DNA of 64,000 nucleotides. Origin: Candidatus Poriferisocius sp. GTDB lineage: Bacteria > Actinomycetota > Acidimicrobiia > Acidimicrobiales > Bin134. A program made the position numbers and the translations under genes. The DNA lies in assembly GCF_965204145.1 (NCBI RefSeq), contig NZ_OZ241977.1:3487811-3551810 (forward strand), in the 5' to 3' direction. Position 1 is the stretch's first letter. Every line of letters begins with the position of its first letter. The notes beneath the pieces were generated by a model. That model was not told the origin of the DNA. It searched no databases and saw only the letters and a list, made by a program, of their open reading frames with translations. Below are positions 24,661 through 53,979 of this stretch, piece by piece.

Positions 24661-24906
24661 ATGAGGCGTCGTCTTGTTGTTCTGGCGGTTTGTGTTTGCG
24701 TGCTCGGGGCGGGTCTTGCTCTGGCTGGCTCTGGCTCGGAGCCGGTTGCGGAGGCCCATGATTACACCGTGCCGGTGAAGAGGAAGAGTGTGCGAGGAAA
24801 CATGGAGCGAATCAGTCAACGTCCGAATGAAACCACTCGCAAGCTGGCAACAACTCTATATAGTACGGGCATACAATCGTGCAACCGGAGAGACCATAGT
24901 GTTTGA
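24661..24906 (+). CDS. Sec-type signal-peptide ORF (81 aa) that overlaps the next ORF by 119 nt in another frame. It is possibly the frameshifted 5' part of that gene.
   Basis: MRRRLVVLAVCVCVLGAGLALAGSGSEPVAEA is a classic n-h-c signal peptide in GC-rich DNA. After about 24780 the ORF continues into AT-rich DNA as a hydrophilic, low-complexity sequence. Confidence 0.35.
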   Translation: MRRRLVVLAVCVCVLGAGLALAGSGSEPVAEAHDYTVPVKRKSVRGNMERISQRPNETTRKLATTLYSTGIQSCNRRDHSV

Positions 24907-25252
24907 TGGGATTAACTATACCGTACCGGTCATCGCTGCTGCTTTAGCATGGTTGGCTGGCGGATCTGCACTTGTTGCTTCGGTTAAGGTTGTTGCTACA
25001 CTTGTAGCTGCTTGGGCTCTAGCAGAGACTGGCGTAATCATCTATCGGGAGCAGTCTGGGCAAGACTGGGCGAGATTGTTCCCTGAACAAGCAGCAGTGC
25101 ATACTAATGGCGACAAATACTGTATGCCCGGCACTGATACACACAACAACAAGAAATGGAAGAGGCACCAGGAGTCAGTTACGAGCACTGATCTCGTAGC
25201 TGGTTACAAGACGGAAACAGTTGCCTCGATTAGTTTCTGTAAGGAGGCCTAG
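24788..25252 (+). CDS. Islet ORF1: unknown small membrane protein (about 154 aa, 2 predicted TM, Cys-containing C-terminal tail ...GYKTETVASISFCKEA)
   Basis: Longest ORF in the AT-rich islet. Hydrophobic helices are VPVIAAALAWLAGGSALVASV and VVATLVAAWALAETGVIIY. The tail is conserved with ORF2 at the protein level but not the nucleotide level. Start (GTG 24788) is uncertain. Confidence 0.6.
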   Translation: MCEETWSESVNVRMKPLASWQQLYIVRAYNRATGETIVFDGINYTVPVIAAALAWLAGGSALVASVKVVATLVAAWALAETGVIIYREQSGQDWARLFPEQAAVHTNGDKYCMPGTDTHNNKKWKRHQESVTSTDLVAGYKTETVASISFCKEA

Positions 25253-25256
25253 TTCT

Positions 25257-25544
25257 GTGGTCGACGACATCTGCAAGACGAAGAAGACCGCTTCGCTGAA
25301 TGGTGCTGAGAAGATCTTGGTTTGCATCATTTCGACCATTGTGGTGTTAAGCACCGTTGGATTCTTGCTGGTTTCTCCATACAAATACTACTTGTTAGGG
25401 TTCAACTACGTTCTTGTCGCAATAGGTATCAATTTAGCAATAAAAATAAGATTGAAGCGCCGACGAGAGAGCAGATCAAATGAAAGCGTTGATGGCTACA
25501 AGACACGAACTCAGTCAACTGTCAGCTATTGCAAAGAAACTTAG
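25257..25544 (+). CDS. Islet ORF2: unknown small 2-TM protein (95 aa) with tail ...GYKTRTQSTVSYCKET
   Basis: GTG 25257 lies 9 nt downstream of a perfect AAGGAGG (25241-25247). Two hydrophobic helices are present, and the C-terminal 28 aa are paralogous to the ORF1 tail. Confidence 0.65.
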   Translation: MVDDICKTKKTASLNGAEKILVCIISTIVVLSTVGFLLVSPYKYYLLGFNYVLVAIGINLAIKIRLKRRRESRSNESVDGYKTRTQSTVSYCKET

Positions 25545-25785
25545 AACATTGAAACCACAACAGAACAAGCCTAGGGCCACCACCATAGTCCTCATCAGCA
25601 TTATCCCTGCTGGAATTGTTGGGATATTAGCTGGTATATTGGGAGAGATCCTAGAATACCCAATGTTTTACGTAGTATTTTATCCAATTGTCGTTGTGAT
25701 CGTGATAGTTGCTTCGATTTGGGCACGGGCATGGAAGCAAAGGCACTTAGTTGAAGAGCCCGCCCCACGATCTCCAGAAATATGA
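25480..25785 (+). CDS. Islet ORF3: unknown small 2-TM protein (101 aa from ATG 25480, or 79 aa from TTG 25549)
   Basis: Helices are IVLISIIPAGIVGILAGILGEIL and MFYVVFYPIVVVIVIVASIWA. An ATG 25480 start would overlap the conserved ORF2 tail by 65 nt in another frame, so the TTG 25549 start is a real alternative. Confidence 0.55.
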   Translation: MKALMATRHELSQLSAIAKKLRTLKPQQNKPRATTIVLISIIPAGIVGILAGILGEILEYPMFYVVFYPIVVVIVIVASIWARAWKQRHLVEEPAPRSPEI

Positions 25786-25800
25786 GATACGGTAGCTACT

Positions 25801-26049
25801 ATGAGTTTTGTAAAGAGGTATAAGATCTTGATGGCAACAGGAATAAAGGGATTACTGCGGACAAAGACACCGCGTTCACTCTATTTGGTTCCTGCGTCGT
25901 TTTGTTTTGGATTTATGATTCTCCGAGAATTCGTTGAGGAGAATTTAATTTACTATCCAATATTTTCAACAGTGTCTGTATTGCTTATCTTGTGGGCCTT
26001 TTGGTTCAGGAAACGCACGCTGGCTTTGGCACGCATCAATCAAACCTGA
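25801..26049 (+). CDS. Islet ORF4: unknown small 2-TM protein (82 aa)
   Basis: ATG start with strongly A/T-biased codons. Helices are LYLVPASFCFGFMIL and IYYPIFSTVSVLLILWAFWF, and both termini are basic. Confidence 0.55.
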   Translation: MSFVKRYKILMATGIKGLLRTKTPRSLYLVPASFCFGFMILREFVEENLIYYPIFSTVSVLLILWAFWFRKRTLALARINQT

Positions 26050-26165
26050 ACGTGGCTAAGCGTTAAACTCTATCGATGGTCACGACAGGTCGGTCTTGAT
26101 CGCAGGCGATGTGTTGCTCAGGGTGTCTCCGTTGAAAGCATCGGCAACTTGGGAGGTTTTGTTGG

Positions 26166-26257
26166 GATGGGTTCGGTTTGAGGGCTGTCTGCGTTGTTTT
26201 GCCGTCCTTCTCGTGGTGTAGGCGTGCGGCGCAGGCAGCTCTCAAACCGAACCCATC
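26166..26257. repeat. Long inverted repeat / stem-loop (28-bp arms 26166-26193 and 26230-26257, 36-nt loop)
   Basis: Base-by-base pairing gives 26 Watson-Crick pairs plus 2 G-T positions over 28 consecutive positions. It sits between convergent islet ORF4 and mtnP, and no U-tract follows on either strand. Confidence 0.85.
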
Positions 26258-31768: not shown

Positions 31769-31842
31769 GGGGCTGTAGCTCAGTTGGCTAGAGCGCCTCG
31801 TTCGCAACGAGGAGGTCGGCGGTTCGAGTCCGCTCAGCTCCA
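31769..31842 (+). tRNA. tRNA-Ala (anticodon CGC)
   Basis: Hand-folded cloverleaf: acceptor GGGGCTG/CAGCTCC with the G3:U70 Ala identity pair, anticodon arm CCTCG-TTCGCAA-CGAGG, T arm GGCGG-TTCGAGT-CCGCT. CCA is not encoded. Confidence 0.93.
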
Positions 31843-31873
31843 CTCAGCCTTGCGCTACTAGCGTGACCCGTCG

Positions 31874-37259: not shown

Positions 37260-39035
37260 ATGAGCGAATCCGAAGCAACCGCACCAGCCGGACGGCGGGC
37301 GGCAATCTCACCGTTTCAAGCGATCTCCGCGGGCATCGTGGCCGCCGGGGCTGCGCTGGGCTTGAGCGAGATTCTGTCGGGGCTGAGCCGCAAGATCCCG
37401 TCGCTGGTGGTGTCGGTGGCCGAGGAGATCGTGGACATCACCCCCGGGTTCATTGCCCGCTGGTCCATCGACACCCTGGGCAGCGCGCAGAAGCCGGCGT
37501 TGGTTTGGGGCATCGTCATCGTGTCGATTCTGCTCGGCGCGGTGTTGGGTTGGCCGTCTCGGAAGCGCTGGTGGGTGATGCCCGCCGGACTCGTGGCGTT
37601 TGCCGTGGTTGGCGGGTGGGCCGCGGCCCGCAACCCGCTGTCCAGCGACGGTTTGGGGTGGATGTCGGGCCTGGTGTCGGGTGCCTTCGGGATCGCGGTG
37701 TTTCTGAGTCTGTATGCGCTTGCACTGGCTGCAATTCCATCGGGCGAATCCCAAGAACCTGCCAGAGAGCGGCGAGTGCCTATGGTGGGCCGGGGCCGCT
37801 TCAACGACCGGCGCCGCTTCGTCGGAGCGGTTGGCATCATGGCTGGGGCTTCGCTGGCCGGCGGCCTGCTCGGGCGATGGCTGCGGCGGCGCGACACTGT
37901 GGAAGGAGCTCGTGAGGGGGTTGCCGAGGCTCTCCAAGGACGCACAATTGCCACACCGACTGCCCGACCCACTCCGGTTCCCACTCAGCAGGCGAGGGCA
38001 GAGCCCGTGCAATCAGATGCCACCCCAGGGGCGACGCCGGAGGCCACGGCCGAGGCCGGAGCCGATCCGACGGCTGATCCCACCGCTGAGCCCACCCCCT
38101 CAGTCACAGCCGAACCGGTAGGGGAGCCCAACTTCGACTACATCGCCGGGATCGCTCCGCTCATCACTCCCAACGAAGACTTCTATCTGATCGACACCGC
38201 CCTCTCGTACCCTCAGGTGGACCCGGCGGACTGGTCGCTGCGGATTCACGGCATGGTGGACCGAGAGGTGGAGATCAGCTTCGACGAACTGCTCGACCTG
38301 GGTCTGGTTCGAGAGCAAGTGACCTTGTCATGTGTCTCCAACAGCGTGGGCGGACGCCTGGTGGGCAACGCCGAGTGGGTGGGAGTGCCGCTGGCCACCG
38401 TGTTGGACGAGGCCGGGGTGCAGCCGGGGGCCACGCAGATTGTGGGTCGCTCGGTAGATCGGTGGACCGCGGGCTTTCCCACCGAGGTGGCGCTCGACGG
38501 CAGGGTCGCCATGGTGGCCGTGCAGATGAACGGCGAGCCGCTGCCCATCTCCCACGGTTTTCCCGCCCGCCTGGTGGTGGCCGGGCTCTACGGCTACGTG
38601 TCGGCCACCAAGTGGCTGTCGGACATCGAGCTCACCACCTGGGAGGGCTTCAACGGCTACTGGATTCCCCGCGGTTGGTCCAAGGAGGGGCCGATCAAGA
38701 CCCAGTCCCGCATCGATGTGCCCCGCGTGGGCTCTGTCATCGACCCTGGACCCACGGCGATTGCCGGAGTGGCCTGGGCGCCGAGTCGGGCCATCGAAAC
38801 GGTGGAAGTTCAGGTGGACGAAGAGCCGTGGGTGGAGGCTGAGCTCAGCCGTGAGACCACCATCAACTCCTGGCGGCAGTGGATGGTGACGTGGAACGCC
38901 ACCCCCGGCCGGCACCAAGTGCGGGTGCGGGCCACCGACGGCACCAACACCACGCAGACCTCCGAGATCACCGACCCCGCCCCCGACGGCGCCACCGGCT
39001 GGCACACCATCCAAGTAAGGGCGGAGGAGGCCTGA
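37260..39035 (+). CDS. Molybdopterin-dependent (sulfite-oxidase-fold) oxidoreductase with N-terminal multi-TM domain and Pro/Thr/Ala-rich linker
   Basis: VTLSCVSNSVGG (Mo-ligand Cys context), MNGEPLPISHGFPARLVVAGLYG and an Ig-like C-terminal dimerisation region. About 6 TM helices at the N-terminus. Confidence 0.85.
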   Translation: MSESEATAPAGRRAAISPFQAISAGIVAAGAALGLSEILSGLSRKIPSLVVSVAEEIVDITPGFIARWSIDTLGSAQKPALVWGIVIVSILLGAVLGWPSRKRWWVMPAGLVAFAVVGGWAAARNPLSSDGLGWMSGLVSGAFGIAVFLSLYALALAAIPSGESQEPARERRVPMVGRGRFNDRRRFVGAVGIMAGASLAGGLLGRWLRRRDTVEGAREGVAEALQGRTIATPTARPTPVPTQQARAEPVQSDATPGATPEATAEAGADPTADPTAEPTPSVTAEPVGEPNFDYIAGIAPLITPNEDFYLIDTALSYPQVDPADWSLRIHGMVDREVEISFDELLDLGLVREQVTLSCVSNSVGGRLVGNAEWVGVPLATVLDEAGVQPGATQIVGRSVDRWTAGFPTEVALDGRVAMVAVQMNGEPLPISHGFPARLVVAGLYGYVSATKWLSDIELTTWEGFNGYWIPRGWSKEGPIKTQSRIDVPRVGSVIDPGPTAIAGVAWAPSRAIETVEVQVDEEPWVEAELSRETTINSWRQWMVTWNATPGRHQVRVRATDGTNTTQTSEITDPAPDGATGWHTIQVRAEEA

Positions 39036-39060: not shown

Positions 39061-39261
39061 TCAGTCTTCGGGCTTGCTGAGTTCCTTGATGATGTGTCTG
39101 GCCAGTCGTTCGTTGATTTCTCGGTGGCGAGGTACAGGCTGATAAGCACCAGTTGCTGGATTGCGGTACCAGTCGTGTTTTGAGCCGTGCCGAACCAGGA
39201 CGGCACCTGCCGCTCGGATCCGCTTGACTAGATCAACCCGCTTCATGCCCGGGTGTGGCAA
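39061..39261 (-). CDS. hicA: HicA-family type II toxin (mRNA interferase)
   Basis: 66 aa. LVKRIRAAGAVLVRHGSKHDWYRNPATGAYQPVPRHREINERLARHIIKEL fits the HicA pattern (GSH..., P.H.EI). It follows hicB with no gap. Confidence 0.85.
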   Translation of the reverse strand: MPHPGMKRVDLVKRIRAAGAVLVRHGSKHDWYRNPATGAYQPVPRHREINERLARHIIKELSKPED

Positions 39262-39558
39262 TCATGCCAGCGTGAGATCAGTGACTCGGCGTACCCCCGG
39301 CAGTTCGCCGCTCGTCAGGTCGGTGTAGAGGTCGCGCAGATGCTGCTTGAGATCGTCCAACGTCTCTCCCTGCGTCCAATAGTCGGGGAACTCTTCCAGG
39401 TATCCGAGCCAACATTCGTCCTCTTGCCAGTAGACCATCTTCGTAGTCGTCACGTCTGCCTCTTCCTTCTGCTCGTTGGCTCGCACTTCCACACGGGCCC
39501 CCATCCCCTCGGTGTCGCCCACCAGTTCACCGTAGCTAAGGCTAACGGTACCTCCCAA
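39262..39558 (-). CDS. hicB: HicB-family antitoxin (N-domain only, UPF0150-like)
   Basis: MVYWQEDECWLGYLEEFPDYWTQGETLDDLKQHLRDLY matches the HicB/UPF0150 core. No C-terminal HTH/RHH is visible. The true start may be ATG 39438. Confidence 0.75.
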   Translation of the reverse strand: MGGTVSLSYGELVGDTEGMGARVEVRANEQKEEADVTTTKMVYWQEDECWLGYLEEFPDYWTQGETLDDLKQHLRDLYTDLTSGELPGVRRVTDLTLA

Positions 39559-39674: not shown

Positions 39675-41984
39675 CTAGCCCCAGTGGTCGGCTTGGTACT
39701 CGATCATGTCGTCGCCATGGAGTTGCTTTGTGGCGTTGCCGATGCGGACCCAGAACTCAGATGGGGGGCCTCCTCCCTCTGTTGCCTTGGTGAAAACAGG
39801 CTTTGCTGAGGCAGCAGCGGTGACGACGCAGACATTGCTATTCGCGTATGGCTCAAATTGGATTCGCACCGTTGCGGCGGTTGGGGCAGACAGGGTGTTG
39901 TCCAGGAGTTGACGCAAGAACAGTTCATAGCCATCTGAGTTGCCTTTGCTCCCCAGTGTCCGCATGTCGTCGCCAAGTCCGATCACATTCGCGTCGTCAT
40001 CGACCCCGATCAAGAGCTTGCCTCCTTCGGCATTGAGGAAGCCGCACACAGTCTTGGCAATGACATGCTCCATCCTTTTGTCTGGCTGGCCGGTGTGCAG
40101 GTTGAAGCGAGCGGTGGACTTGAACTCCACGGTCTGCGATTCTCCAGCCGCGATCAGGTCGACCACGGTGGAGGAGGAGTGGTCGTCGCTCTGGCCATCC
40201 CACAGGCGTTCAAAGCCATTCCGAGTCGCTCTGGCCATCAACACCCGGCGCTTCTCCAGAAAGTCTGAGTAGTCCAATTGCTCCCAGCCGACAGGGAGCG
40301 CGTGCCAATGGATCTGCCTTTGCCGCTGATCTGGGTTCAGACGGCTGGACATTGTCGGCCAGTACTCCATGGGGTCATCAGCCCCGATGTCAGAGTTGTC
40401 CGGCCAGTCCAAGAAGGCCATGTTTGCGATGGCATTGACCTGTCGAGTCTCGGTGACTCCCTTGGCATTCAAATGGGCTCTAGGAAACAGGTGATGACGC
40501 TCGACTGATCGAGGTGCACTCTCTCCAGGTTTCAGCATGTCCCTCATCTTGAGGTTGCTGAACAGAAGCTCGGCATCGAGCACGTTCAGGGCGGCCCAGT
40601 AGGCACAGAGAGCAGGGGACTTGGCTGATGAACTGTCGAGCCTGGCCGGAAGCGATACCTCCCAGTAGTCGTTTGTGAAGTTGGCCTTGATTTGCCGGTC
40701 GAGCTCGGCACAGAAAGCTTCAGGATTGTTCGGTTCCAGGGAGTTGATGCGGCCAAGGTCGGCCTCCAAGGCGGTTTCGCTTGATCCCGTATAGCGACCG
40801 GTGGTGTGGGCCATGAAGAACCATCGCGCCATCACGGTCTGAAGAGTCGAGACGCTCAGACCAAAGTCTCGACGGCCGATCAGCCAAATGACATAGCAGT
40901 AGATCAAGGCAGTATCAGATGTGATCATCCGTCGCCCTCGGAAGCCAGCAAGGGTCAGGCATTTGAGGTACTCGTGCCAGTTGGTGAGGTCCAGCACTTC
41001 GTCTTGGGCCAAGCGCAGCCGTTCGAACTGCTCATCTCGGCGAGCAGATGACACCTCTCCGGTGTTGAGGTCCTTGCCTCGTAGAAGGCTGTAAACGTGT
41101 TGTAGGCGAGCCCGGCGGAAGGCGAGGCCAACACCCGCCCGTAGGAGTTGGTCGGGGCTCGGATCAATGAACGTGTTTTTCGGCGAGGGGCCCTGTACTG
41201 AAGGGTCAACGGCGTCGCGGCTGAATCGCTCAAGCTCTCTCCGGCCTTTCTCCCAGTGAACCGACATCAATGTGAGAATGAAGTCTGCTTGGTTGAGCTG
41301 CACCCCTTCTGAGTTGATGCGCACGAAGATTTCCGCAACCTGTTCCTCGTCCGCATTCGCATTCAGTTGGATGACTTGGAAGCGAAAATCCCTGAGGTCG
41401 CGAACTCGGTCTATTCGGCCTTCTAGATCTTCTTCCTCATCCTCGGGCATTTCCTCACCTCGATTCTCGGCCAGCCTGGCCAAGAAGGCGCGCACAGTTG
41501 CCCGATAGCGGTCCTTCCATAGTTCGGTTATGTCGGGAATGAATTCGGGATCTCTTCGAATAGCCGCATCGGCGACTTCAAACGTCTCATCGGATGGCCG
41601 GAAGGCGATCTGGATCTGGCGATTCTCGAAGGACTTGGTGAGCACCCTTTGCCCGGTGAGCACCGCAAACAGGGAGGTCAGGCGTTGCTGCCCGTCAACG
41701 ATGAGTTGCTTGGCAACCCTGTCGTGCTCGCCTCCCCCAACTTGTCGGGTGCTGGTGTCGGCACCGGTTTCCCAGAAGAGCAGTGTCCCAATCGGGTATC
41801 CCCGATACATGGAGTCGAAGAGGTCGCGCACCTTGGCTGATGACCAAACAAACGGCCGCTGGATATCAGGTAGAGCAATCTCGCCGTGCCTGATCTCTTC
41901 GATCAGGTGGGTCAACGAGTAATTGGTGTCTCGGTACAGCGTCGGCGGCATGGGCCGAGAGTCTATGGGGGTGGCTCTGGTCAA
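39675..41984 (-). CDS. DUF262 (GmrSD N-domain, ParB-like) plus His-Me-finger (DUF1524-like) plus C-terminal AlbA_2/Schlafen-like domain fusion protein. Candidate modification-dependent nuclease / defence protein.
   Basis: DIQRPFVWSSAKVRDLFDSMYRGYPIGTLLFWE and IVDGQQRLTSL are the DUF262 signature (residues about 25-240). ERHHLFPRAHL...NAIANMAFLDWPDNSDIG is nuclease-like (about 495-535). ESQTVEFKSTARFNLHTGQPDKRMEHVIAKTVCGFLNAEGGKLLIGVDDDANVIGL resembles AlbA_2 (about 607-755). GC is lower than the flanks. Confidence 0.8.
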   Translation of the reverse strand: MTRATPIDSRPMPPTLYRDTNYSLTHLIEEIRHGEIALPDIQRPFVWSSAKVRDLFDSMYRGYPIGTLLFWETGADTSTRQVGGGEHDRVAKQLIVDGQQRLTSLFAVLTGQRVLTKSFENRQIQIAFRPSDETFEVADAAIRRDPEFIPDITELWKDRYRATVRAFLARLAENRGEEMPEDEEEDLEGRIDRVRDLRDFRFQVIQLNANADEEQVAEIFVRINSEGVQLNQADFILTLMSVHWEKGRRELERFSRDAVDPSVQGPSPKNTFIDPSPDQLLRAGVGLAFRRARLQHVYSLLRGKDLNTGEVSSARRDEQFERLRLAQDEVLDLTNWHEYLKCLTLAGFRGRRMITSDTALIYCYVIWLIGRRDFGLSVSTLQTVMARWFFMAHTTGRYTGSSETALEADLGRINSLEPNNPEAFCAELDRQIKANFTNDYWEVSLPARLDSSSAKSPALCAYWAALNVLDAELLFSNLKMRDMLKPGESAPRSVERHHLFPRAHLNAKGVTETRQVNAIANMAFLDWPDNSDIGADDPMEYWPTMSSRLNPDQRQRQIHWHALPVGWEQLDYSDFLEKRRVLMARATRNGFERLWDGQSDDHSSSTVVDLIAAGESQTVEFKSTARFNLHTGQPDKRMEHVIAKTVCGFLNAEGGKLLIGVDDDANVIGLGDDMRTLGSKGNSDGYELFLRQLLDNTLSAPTAATVRIQFEPYANSNVCVVTAAASAKPVFTKATEGGGPPSEFWVRIGNATKQLHGDDMIEYQADHWG

Positions 41985-42069: not shown

Positions 42070-43752
42070 TTACTCCTCCACGAAGGTGTTGGCAGCCTCG
42101 CCTGACAAGACGGGCTTGAGCACCTTGCCGGAGGCATTGCGGGGAAGGGGGTCGGTGCGGATCTCAACGTGGGCCGGCACCTTGTAGTAGGCCAGCTTCT
42201 CTCCGACGAACTGCTGGATATCGGCGGCGTCGAGCGATGTGTCGGGGTGGGGTACGACCACGGCCTTCACCTCTTGGCCCAGTGTCCGGTGGTCCACCCC
42301 GATGACCGCGGCCTCGTGGATGCCGGGGTGCTCCTCCAACCGGTTCTCGATCTCGATGGGGTAGATGTTCTCACCGCCCCGGATGATCATGTCCCGCACT
42401 CGGGAGGCGATGGTCAGCATGTCGCCCCGCATGTGGCCGAAATCGCCGGTGCGCAGCCAATGCCCGGGAAAGAAGGCAGCCTCGGTGGCTTGGGGCTGGT
42501 TCCAGTAGCCGGGCATCACGTTCGGGCCCCGAACGCACACCTCGCCGACGGTGCCGTCGGGCACCTGTCGACCCTCGCTGTCTCGGATCTCCACTTGCAC
42601 GGTGGGAAGCGGCGTCCCCGCGCAGGTCGGATCATCGAGCAGCATCTGAGAGGTGGCGATGGTGGCCAAGGCGCCGGTCTCGGTGCTGCCGTAGCCCACC
42701 TGCATCTGGGGCGCGGCATCGGGCAGCCGCTCCCGAATGGCCCGCTGAAGCTCAGGCGACCACACCGATCCGCCTCCGCCGCACGCCCGCACCGAGGAGT
42801 GGTCGTAGTCGTTCAGCGCGGGGTGCTCCAACAGCCGCCATACCTGGGTGGTGACCCCGCCCCATCGGCTGATCCGCTCCCACTCGGTGAGCTGGAACAC
42901 CTTTTCGGGGTCGAATCGACCGGTGGTCCATACCGACTTCATGCCGTTGGCCACCATGGCCACCGCGGCCGAGTGCAGCCCCGACACATGGAAGAGAGGA
43001 CTGCTCACCAGCGAGCACGGCTCGGGGGCATCGGGGTCGGCAGGGCGATCGGCCAGGCTGGCCAGCATGGCCGAGCGGGCGCCGGAGAAGGCGGTGATGC
43101 CCAAGAAGGCGATGATGTTGCGGTGGGTGTTGACCGCCCCTTTGGGCCGTCCGGTGGTGCCCGAGGTGAACAGCACCACCGCGGGATCGTCCTCGTCGAT
43201 GGGAACGTCGGGCAGGGGAGCGGTCATGTCGAAGCCCGACAGCCGGTCCTCGAAATCCTCCTCTACAACCACCGTGGCTATCCCGGGATCGGCCCCCTGG
43301 AGGCGGGCCAAGCGCTTCTGGTCGGCGATGAGCAGCTTGGGCTCGGTCAGCTCCAGCCCGTGGACGATCTCGTCACCGGTCCACCAGCCGTTCATGCCCA
43401 CTGCGATGGCCCCCAGCGAGATGGCCGCCCACATCCCGATAACCCACTCCGGGCTGTTGGCCCCCAGCAGGGCCACCCGGTCGCCGGGGCCGATGTCGTA
43501 GCGCTCGGCCATCGCCGCGGCGGCCGACGCCACTAGCCGCTCGTGCTGCACGAAGGTGTAGCGCCGGCCATCGTCCCAGATGAACAGCTCCCGGTCGCCG
43601 TGCTCGACCGATCGGGCCAGCAGCTCCCGGAGCGATCTGGCCCGGTTGGCGAACACCTCGTAGACCTCGCCGTTGACGGTGGCGGTGGTGGTCTCAAAGG
43701 GGCTTCCGGGGGCGCGCAGGAGTTCCTCGGCCTCTTGAAGGGTCATTCCCAT
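42070..43752 (-). CDS. AMP-dependent acyl-CoA synthetase/ligase
   Basis: The track ORF was trimmed to ATG 43750-43752 (MGMTLQEAEE...). LFTSGTTGRPKGA (AMP motif I), YGSTE and TGDFG motifs. The upstream part of the ORF is antisense to the ACAD gene. Confidence 0.88.
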   Translation of the reverse strand: MGMTLQEAEELLRAPGSPFETTTATVNGEVYEVFANRARSLRELLARSVEHGDRELFIWDDGRRYTFVQHERLVASAAAAMAERYDIGPGDRVALLGANSPEWVIGMWAAISLGAIAVGMNGWWTGDEIVHGLELTEPKLLIADQKRLARLQGADPGIATVVVEEDFEDRLSGFDMTAPLPDVPIDEDDPAVVLFTSGTTGRPKGAVNTHRNIIAFLGITAFSGARSAMLASLADRPADPDAPEPCSLVSSPLFHVSGLHSAAVAMVANGMKSVWTTGRFDPEKVFQLTEWERISRWGGVTTQVWRLLEHPALNDYDHSSVRACGGGGSVWSPELQRAIRERLPDAAPQMQVGYGSTETGALATIATSQMLLDDPTCAGTPLPTVQVEIRDSEGRQVPDGTVGEVCVRGPNVMPGYWNQPQATEAAFFPGHWLRTGDFGHMRGDMLTIASRVRDMIIRGGENIYPIEIENRLEEHPGIHEAAVIGVDHRTLGQEVKAVVVPHPDTSLDAADIQQFVGEKLAYYKVPAHVEIRTDPLPRNASGKVLKPVLSGEAANTFVEE

Positions 43753-43779
43753 AGACCCTGACGCTAGAGTCCCGCAAAG

Positions 43780-44970
43780 ATGGATTTCGACCTCAACCCC
43801 GCCGAGAGGGATTTCCGCGACGAGGTGCGGACCTGGCTGGAGGAGCACCTGGTGGGGGAGTTCGCCGGTTTGCGAGGCCGGGGCGGCATGGGCCAGGAGG
43901 ACATTCCCGCCGAGCAGCAGATCGCCTGGGAGCAGGAGATGGCCAGCGGCGGCTGGCTGGGCATCGACTTTCCGGCCCACCTGGGCGGCCGGGAGTGCAG
44001 CTTGTCGGAGCAGGTGCTGTTCCACCAGACCTATGTGGAGGCTCGGGCGCCGGGGCGGCTGCCCAACATGGGGGTCACGCTGTTGGGGCCGACTCTGGTG
44101 GCCTACGGCACGCCCGAGCAGCAGGAGCGATTCGTGCCCCCGATTCTGTCGGGCGAGGAGTTCTGGTGCCAGGGCTATTCCGAGCCCAATGCCGGGTCGG
44201 ATCTGGCCAATGTGGGCACCAAAGCAGTGCTCGACGGCGATCGATGGGTGGTCAACGGCCAGAAGATCTGGACCTCGCTGGCCCAGTATTCCGACTGGTG
44301 CTTCGTGGTATGCCGCACCGACCCGGACTCTGCCCGCCACGCCGGCCTCTCCTACCTGCTGGTGCCCATGGACCAGCCGGGGATAGAGATCCGCCCCATC
44401 GTGCAGATCACCGGCGGAACCGAGTTCAACGAAGTCTTCTTCGACGACGCGGTGACCGATGCCGATCTGGTGGTGGGCCAGCCCGGCCGGGGCTGGGAGG
44501 TGGCCATGGGCACGCTGGCCTTCGAGCGGGGGGCGTCCACGCTGGGCCAACAGACCTACTTCCGCCAAGAGCTGGACGCGCTGTTGGCCGAGGCCAGGGC
44601 CAACGGCACCGCCGATGACCTGGTGGTTCGCCAGGAGCTGGCCCAGGCCTACGCCACGTTAGAGATCATGCGGTACAACAACTTGCGGATGCTCACCGTG
44701 GTGGACGCTGGCGGAGTGCCGGGGCCGGAGATGTCGATCGGCAAGCTGTTGTGGTCCAACTGGCACCGTTCGCTGGGCGAGTTGATGGTGGGGGTGCGGG
44801 GGGCGGATGCCATGGCGGTGGCGGCCGCCGACGGCGAGGAATACTCGCTGGACTCCTGGCAGCGCACGTTCCTGTACAGCCGAGCCCACACCATTTACGC
44901 CGGGTCGAACGAGATTCAGCGAAACATCATCGGCGAGCGAGTTTTGGGCCTTCCCCGAGAGCCGCGATGA
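43780..44970 (+). CDS. Acyl-CoA dehydrogenase
   Basis: 396 aa. WCQGYSEPNAGSDLA and IYAGSNEIQRNIIGERVLGLP are typical ACAD motifs. Confidence 0.9.
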   Translation: MDFDLNPAERDFRDEVRTWLEEHLVGEFAGLRGRGGMGQEDIPAEQQIAWEQEMASGGWLGIDFPAHLGGRECSLSEQVLFHQTYVEARAPGRLPNMGVTLLGPTLVAYGTPEQQERFVPPILSGEEFWCQGYSEPNAGSDLANVGTKAVLDGDRWVVNGQKIWTSLAQYSDWCFVVCRTDPDSARHAGLSYLLVPMDQPGIEIRPIVQITGGTEFNEVFFDDAVTDADLVVGQPGRGWEVAMGTLAFERGASTLGQQTYFRQELDALLAEARANGTADDLVVRQELAQAYATLEIMRYNNLRMLTVVDAGGVPGPEMSIGKLLWSNWHRSLGELMVGVRGADAMAVAAADGEEYSLDSWQRTFLYSRAHTIYAGSNEIQRNIIGERVLGLPREPR

Positions 44971-53903: not shown

Positions 53904-53979
53904 GCCCCGTTCGTCTAGAGGCCTAGGACGCCAGATTCTCAATCTGGTAACACGGGTTCGAATCCCGTACGGGGTGCCA
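53904..53979 (+). tRNA. tRNA-Glu (anticodon CUC), CCA encoded
   Basis: Hand-folded: acceptor GCCCCGT/ACGGGGT, D arm TCGTCTAGAGGCCTAGGAC typical of tRNA-Glu, anticodon arm CCAGA-TTCTCAA-TCTGG, T arm ACGGG-TTCGAAT-CCCGT, 3' GCCA. Confidence 0.92.

Follow-up and report, generated by a model that had tools for sequence, protein, structure and literature searches.

Prokaryotic Schlafens (pSlfns) were recently surveyed by Perez Taboada et al. (bioRxiv July 2025; Nat Microbiol 2026, PMC13056530), who sorted 5,930 of these proteins into 55 domain compositions, 1.8% of the proteins combining a DUF262 with a Schlafen domain (DUF262-Slfn). One member of this class, EcoSlfn7 from E. coli UC4224, lowered the plating of phage T7 about 540-fold and acted over a broad phage range, with T3 and T7 the most affected according to the preprint of that study. 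The mechanistic work reported there concerns another class, that of the immunoglobulin-like (Ig-like) RorSlfn5, a trigger-activated transfer RNA (tRNA) nuclease (tRNase), rather than DUF262-Slfn, and the terms GmrSD, DUF1524/HNH and type IV restriction have 0 occurrences in its text. Our literature search returned no other paper that links AlbA_2/Schlafen with DUF262/GmrSD domains. Two further groups of defence proteins bear on the present case, namely BrxU (7p9k), a GmrSD-family type IV restriction enzyme from the bacteriophage exclusion (BREX) island of pEFER that runs through an adenosine triphosphate (ATP)-driven dimer-to-monomer cycle (PMC8565348), and SLFN11/13/14 with the tRNase domain of SAMD9, which are antiviral tRNA-cleaving effectors under an attached nucleic-acid-sensing module. 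Here, we analyzed a DUF262-Slfn gene in a 64,000-nucleotide stretch of a Candidatus Poriferisocius sp. genome (contig NZ_OZ241977.1, positions 3,487,811 to 3,551,810; hereafter, the window). The gene lies in an uninterrupted open reading frame (ORF) at 39675-41984 on the minus strand, encoding 769 amino acids (aa) from a TTG codon. On the basis of sequence comparison, a structural model and analogy, we lean towards reading it as an anti-phage defence protein that would act on its own, is passed on horizontally and would unite a DNA- and an RNA-directed nuclease module in a single chain.

By shared domain composition and motif, the window protein is a member of the DUF262-Slfn class. Like EcoSlfn7, for which the anti-phage function has been shown in vivo, it joins DUF262 to a Schlafen domain with an Ex4(E/D)xK motif and appears to be a single-gene system. 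The two differ in origin, EcoSlfn7 coming from E. coli and the window protein from a high-GC actinobacterial-type genome (GC, guanine plus cytosine), and they were compared by domain composition, not by sequence; tblastn searches of plasmids and phages with the full protein and with the Slfn domain found no enterobacterial DUF262-Slfn. The architecture is common, catalogued and validated in vivo at class level, and hence not new. An original prediction made from the letters alone had described a DUF262 N-terminus, a His-Me nuclease block and a C-terminal AlbA_2/Schlafen-like domain. We recovered all three, along with every motif that it quoted, the identity of the nuclease block coming from profile and fold comparison with BrxU and not from Pfam. 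Its further statement that such an architecture was not known as characterised stands in part. A common, already characterised family was the outcome that it named as refuting it, and half of this is what we found: the architecture is common and described, and its characterisation consists of the in vivo defence of E. coli by a class member (PMC13056530).

We next describe the protein from its N-terminus, using residue numbers of the 769-aa, TTG-started translation throughout. The DUF262/GmrSD_N domain, a ParB-like NTPase, occupies residues 25-237 (41274-41912, minus strand) and is matched by Pfam GmrSD_N (PF03235) at an expectation value (E) of 3.3e-34, its 119 bits far exceeding the cut-off of 33. 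It carries the motifs QR (42-43), RDLFDS (53-58) and DGQQR (97-101) and can be aligned to the N-domain of BrxU, R53-S58 falling on BrxU R38-LFDS42 with the Arg offset by one residue. An all-helical linker follows at residues ~245-470 (40575-41252, minus strand), the counterpart of the inter-domain helical region of BrxU. The relationship to BrxU extends over the whole of this body. The best PADLOC model for the protein is HEC-05 (E 1.6e-38), which is BrxU (Payne et al.), and hhalign matched the family profile to residues 5-574 of BrxU (7p9k) with 98.4% probability (E 9e-15). We also modelled the protein with AlphaFold2 (AF2) from a 45-sequence alignment, obtaining a predicted local distance difference test score (pLDDT) of 87 and a predicted template modelling score (pTM) of 0.66; a first model from 14 close homologues had reached a pLDDT of 45 and was discarded. 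In Foldseek, the top matches of the body were BrxU (E 1.5e-13, 657 columns) and SspE. The linker is modelled mostly with pLDDT >90, and both the hhalign and the Foldseek alignments to BrxU run through it.

By sequence, profile and fold alike, BrxU is thus the top match of the window protein over ~570 residues, sharing the RLFDS-like motif, DGQQR, the helical linker and an in-register His-Me finger. The differences are equally clear: identity in the structural alignment is ~16%, HHLFP stands in place of DHIYP, the window gene is not inside a BREX system, and it carries an extra Schlafen domain of ~160 aa that is absent from BrxU. From profile and model together, residues 13-594 are best described as a complete, divergent BrxU-type GmrSD body with a predicted HNH site of the 'HH' rather than the 'DH/EH' type. 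Two other matches within this region were set aside, namely a PD-(D/E)XK match at residues 130-205 (E 0.084, zero significant stretches), which we regard as noise, and matches of residues 367-459 to antibody heavy chains in the PDB (E ~0.03-0.8), which we attribute to chance.

The divergent DUF1524-like His-Me (HNH) finger is assigned to residues ~476-596 (40197-40559, minus strand), with R496-H497-H498-L-F-P501, N517, N521 and N530 as its landmarks. The hhalign alignment pairs R-H497-H498-L-F-P with V-D474-H475-I-Y-P of BrxU and N517/N521/N530 with its N505/N509/N518-519; the nuclease region alone aligned to BrxU in the same register as the full-length profile (E 1.4e-4). In the AF2 model, the finger forms a beta-beta-alpha unit of strands 494-498 and 522-526 and helix 527-533.

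The single-lobe Schlafen/AlbA_2 domain closes the protein at residues ~606-768 (39681-40169, minus strand). SLFN_AlbA_2 (PF04326) matches residues 615-755 at E 2.5e-16, scoring 60.7 bits where the cut-off is 25.3. Of the two lobes of mammalian SLFN8/11/12/14, the catalytic C-lobe and not the N-lobe is the one to which the tail aligns: ESQTVEFK lies on ESxxIEFK of SLFN8/SLFN11, and GVDD on GVDD. The Ex4ExK motif reads E615-SQTV-E620-F-K622 and is followed downstream by D663, so that E615, E620, K622 and D663 form the predicted active site. We take D663 to be the counterpart of the catalytic Asp of rat SLFN13, presumably D248, as the alignment to the SLFN C-lobe also indicates. Foldseek matched the tail to DIP2311 (3lmm), SLFN13/14/5/11/12 and the SAMD9 tRNase domain, and the fold and the E-E-K...D constellation are those of SLFN11/13/14 and SAMD9. 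Compared with the mammalian Schlafens, the window protein has one lobe and not a two-lobed horseshoe, carries it at the C-terminus and not the N-terminus, and joins it to a GmrSD restriction enzyme and not to a helicase.

To gauge which residues are retained across the family, we aligned 247 full-length homologues of 27-98% identity, chosen by a motif filter, with MAFFT. In the DUF262 domain, all 247 retain D97 and R101, and 244/247 retain Q99 and Q100 (DGQQR overall, 244-247), while D57 and S58 of RDLFDS are kept in 246/247. The finger retains H497 in 243/247, H498 in 241/247, N521 in 247/247 and N530 in 239/247, and the Schlafen site retains E615, E620 and K622 in 245/247 each and D663 in 244/247. 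Fourteen length-matched proteins had been dropped by the motif filter; 13 of them have another C-terminal domain in place of a Slfn tail, and the last (P0143) is fragment-like with its Slfn position shifted, so that no Slfn-bearing protein with a degenerate motif was found among the 14. Purifying selection thus seems to act on each of the three catalytic centres. Because the Ex4ExK...D site is near-invariant in the homologues, the Schlafen tail looks like a second nuclease rather than a passive sensor.

The family is large and patchily distributed. More than 240 clusters (90% identity) contain both Pfam domains at full length, and the window protein is 98% identical to database copies. More than 120 clusters lie at >=68% identity to the query and come from Acidimicrobiia, Euzebya, Microbacterium and Demequina. 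A second subfamily at ~30% identity, reached by a search seeded with one of its members (P0257), contributes another >100 clusters, all from environmental Chloroflexi and Rokubacteria. Further members were found in Acidobacteria, Gemmatimonadota, Lentisphaerae, Planctomycetes and Alphaproteobacteria and on haloarchaeal plasmids. A separate observation concerns the evenness of the first group, in which more than 100 clusters (90% identity), drawn from several actinobacterial classes and a metagenome-assembled genome of Acidobacteria, share 68-72% identity and a length of 756-758 aa. Such tight conservation is unusual for a defence gene and suggests recent horizontal spread, strong constraint on the whole protein, or both. 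Four relatives at 69% identity (P0106, P0112, P0113 and P0117) are 1005-aa DUF262-Slfn variants with an N-terminal extension of ~245 aa (PF28530).

An exhaustive search of 50%-identity representatives with core residues ~13-594 placed the Schlafen fusion in a wider clade. The core also occurs alone, as proteins of ~590 aa, and nearly all members carry HH[LI]FP. Among 71 complete representatives, 28 are core-only, 17 bear Slfn and 19 have another C-terminal domain; N-terminal extensions were present in 18 of the 71, overlapping the C-terminal categories. Among the alternatives to Slfn at the C-terminus are RAMA, DUF4268 and a SAV2148- or Swt1-like HEPN, which recurs although its matches stay below threshold, and some sister proteins carry Mrr_N at the N-terminus. 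These tailed proteins share the HHxFP-type GmrSD core with the window protein and differ from it in the add-on, HEPN being likewise an RNase effector. In a crude neighbour-joining tree of the core, built without support values, the Slfn-bearing members are scattered among the other forms, which suggests repeated swapping in the C-terminal slot. Such add-ons have been described before: DUF4268 and DUF4357 were noted on GmrSD proteins by Machnicka et al. 2015 (PMC4619093), and a haloarchaeal ParB(DUF262)+HNH+HEPN protein (e.g. VNG7073) by Anantharaman et al. 2013 (PMC3710099). Two plasmids provide further links of these modules with restriction-modification systems. A Slfn/AlbA_2 domain like that of the window protein lies inside a gene annotated as N-6 DNA methylase on the Pseudoalteromonas nigrifaciens plasmid NZ_CP011038.1 (H49), and on the Meiothermus taiwanensis plasmid NZ_CP021131.1 (H6) a class I S-adenosylmethionine-dependent DNA methyltransferase lies directly beside a core-only GmrSD homologue of the HHxFP type.

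The surroundings of the gene and its relatives point to mobility. Over 39-42 kb of the window (~3 kb) the GC content is 0.58, with flanks at 0.66-0.70 and the genome at 67%. Orthologues of 87-94% identity (L001, L084, L085) sit at another locus, TauD...transglycosylase...P450/SodFe, where the same spot variably holds PIN, Fic, AAA_14-DUF4143 or an ABC-F-like ATPase; it looks like a hot-spot for defence and toxin-antitoxin genes. The Euzebya copy adjoins a radical-SAM/UvrD-like/TPR cluster and a NurA-Mre11-Rad50-type cluster (NurA, Metallophos and SMC_N matches). Around the window gene and its relatives we found no conserved partner genes and no methyltransferase, and the neighbourhoods differ. 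Because there is neither a conserved partner nor a cognate methyltransferase, these data fit a single-gene, type IV-like cassette ('modification-independent-of-self') that moves between hot-spots.

If the gene encodes a stand-alone defence protein with both a DNA- and an RNA-directed nuclease, as we favour, a course of events can be proposed. The body would cycle between an interlocked dimer and nucleoside triphosphate (NTP)-bound monomers while interrogating DNA, as in BrxU. Engagement of phage DNA, perhaps modified or otherwise aberrant, would lead the HNH site to cut it, and the same conformational or oligomeric switch may pair two Schlafen lobes, mimicking the two-lobed mammalian nuclease. 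Since the mammalian nucleases are two-lobed and the window protein is one-lobed, dimerisation of the body would be a natural way to assemble and disassemble an active RNase. The paired lobes would then license cleavage of RNA, probably tRNA, which is what RorSlfn5 and human SLFN11 cleave with their Ex4ExK...D site (PMC13056530), adding an arm of translation shut-down to restriction. We further entertain, as a possible but doubtful extension, a 'restriction-plus-abortive-infection' enzyme in which DNA recognition by the GmrSD NTPase/HNH part gates the Schlafen tRNase through a BrxU-like cycle, and a HHxFP clade that has repeatedly exchanged RNase effectors and DNA readers in its slot.

Several points weigh against the two-nuclease reading. 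The substrates, the coupling of the modules and the dimer-mediated pairing of Schlafen lobes are drawn by analogy, and the inter-domain geometry of the AF2 model is uncertain at a pTM of 0.66. The link to EcoSlfn7 is one of shared domain composition, not of sequence-compared orthology. EcoSlfn7 is moreover strongest on T3/T7, whose DNA is not hypermodified, a misfit with a simple modification-dependent trigger; because it acts best on phages with unmodified DNA, modification dependence is doubtful. The HNH assignment leans on the full-length profile and fold matches to BrxU: Pfam GmrSD_C/DUF1524 (PF07510) gave no match to the window protein at E <= 0.1, it matched 6/45 relatives with a best E of 9e-4 and all below the gathering score, and the domain-only hhalign of the nuclease region reached a probability of just 52%. 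The acidic BrxU D474 is a His in the window protein, HH being, however, a normal HNH variant, as in colicin E7/E9. Finally, RAMA and DUF4268, which occupy the same slot in sister proteins, are more reader-like than effector-like.

Some of these points would be expected if the GmrSD body only sensed phage and did not cut DNA in vivo, leaving the Schlafen tRNase as sole effector and abortive infection or translation shut-down as the only means of defence. In the scheme of Perez Taboada et al., Slfn is the effector and the domains fused to it are sensors, RorSlfn5 works in this way (PMC13056530), the peak activity of EcoSlfn7 on unmodified T3/T7 is unexpected for a classical GmrSD DNase, and the nuclease region stays below the Pfam GmrSD_C threshold. 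We nevertheless consider this rather unlikely, as HH...N521...N530 is conserved as strongly as the Schlafen site (239-247/247) and HH aligns on BrxU D474/H475, whose alanine mutants abolish phage resistance (Payne et al.). In addition, many core-only HHxFP relatives of ~590 aa are found without another effector, and because they have none, the core must be able to act alone. The converse arrangement, a type IV enzyme whose HNH nuclease is targeted or gated by a catalytically inactive AlbA_2/Schlafen domain that serves as a reader or binds nucleic acids, is close to the original prediction, which had called this domain a 'sensor-like nucleic-acid-binding module'. AlbA_2 domains do bind nucleic acids, the DNA-binding domain of SAMD9 (7ksp) and DIP2311 (3lmm) are among the fold matches, and the sister proteins with reader-like RAMA or Mrr_N agree with it, as does the similar Slfn domain in the plasmid gene annotated as N-6 DNA methylase. 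Binding alone, however, would not need the catalytic Ex4ExK and Asp that are kept in 244-245/247 homologues down to 27% identity, and the domain aligns to the catalytic lobe of mammalian Schlafens. Bacterial Slfn domains with the motif are described as active tRNases (PMC13056530). With a HEPN RNase in the same slot of sister proteins, a nuclease effector is the better description, and we regard a pure reader as improbable.

A role outside defence, be it housekeeping or regulatory DNA processing (e.g. repair or ParB-like segregation) or that of a decaying passenger of a mobile island, appears very improbable. It could draw on the lack of an adjoining partner methyltransferase or classical defence operon, on the metabolic immediate flanks and on the ~30% of pSlfn genes that are not near known defence genes (PMC13056530). 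Against it stand an uninterrupted ORF with 98% identity to database copies, the low GC content, the patchy cross-phylum distribution and the different insertion sites in close relatives, and the best matches (BrxU, SspE and pSlfn) are experimentally validated defence proteins.

Regarding the gene model, the true coding sequence is probably 39675-41951 (minus strand), encoding 758 aa from the ATG at 41951, which is residue 12 of the ORF. This start is probable because the homologues are nearly all 758 aa long and begin with MPPTLY or MTPTLY, which corresponds to that residue. Downstream on the same strand lie two contiguous ORFs with zero gap between them. The farther one, at 39061-39261 (66 aa), encodes a HicA toxin (Pfam HicA_toxin E 8.7e-10, with a score of 39 bits and a cut-off of 27; PHROG 353 'toxin' E 2.4e-11). 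The nearer one, at 39262-39558 (98 aa), encodes a putative HicB-like (UPF0150-like) antitoxin that stays below the Pfam cut-off (UPF0150 E 0.015) and probably has an internal start. PDB and PHROG comparison of this ORF gave no support for antitoxin identity, and a PDB match to an 'amide synthase' is regarded as chance. The two ORFs are a probable toxin-antitoxin pair in which the antitoxin is softly assigned; of the low-GC DNA beside such a pair that the original prediction had reported, the GC content and the toxin are clear, and the antitoxin is sub-threshold. A scan of NCBIfam matched neither the DUF262-Slfn protein nor the HicB-like ORF nor HicA.

The metabolic flanks of the island are a molybdopterin oxidoreductase gene at 37260-39035 on one side and, on the other, a gene for an AMP-binding acyl-CoA synthetase ending at 42070. 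The 832-aa ORF of the latter (42070-44568, minus strand) is over-extended: AMP-binding domains occur in its last ~400 aa only (42070 to ~43290), and its upstream part overlaps a plus-strand acyl-CoA-dehydrogenase-like ORF at 43780-44970. A search for direct repeats flanking the island returned none that were convincing, and no tRNA gene adjoins it; the window contains tRNA-Ala(CGC) at 31769-31843 and tRNA-Glu(CTC) at 53904-53979, neither of which adjoins the low-GC islands. A stronger compositional anomaly than the DUF262-Slfn island is found at 24800-26200, where GC falls to 38-52% over ~1.4 kb in a background of 66-70%. Its small plus-strand ORFs (24788-25252, 25221-25544, 25480-25785 and 25801-26049) belong to no Pfam or PHROG family, and one of them has weak membrane-protein-like matches.

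For the window, these results improve the annotation to that of a putative mobile single-gene defence cassette adjoining a probable hicAB pair. Relative to the Schlafen survey, what is new is that the DUF262 partner appears to be a whole HNH-bearing restriction enzyme and that its clade has a swappable C-terminal slot for Slfn, HEPN, RAMA or DUF4268. Because this partner is a BrxU-like enzyme with a conserved HNH site, members of the DUF262-Slfn class probably possess both a DNA- and an RNA-directed nuclease. The class may thus be seen anew, as one that possibly ties type IV restriction directly to a translation shut-down of the Schlafen type. If the proposed gating is true, a bacterial DNA-sensing module would control a Schlafen tRNase, much as the binding of single-stranded DNA activates human SLFN11.

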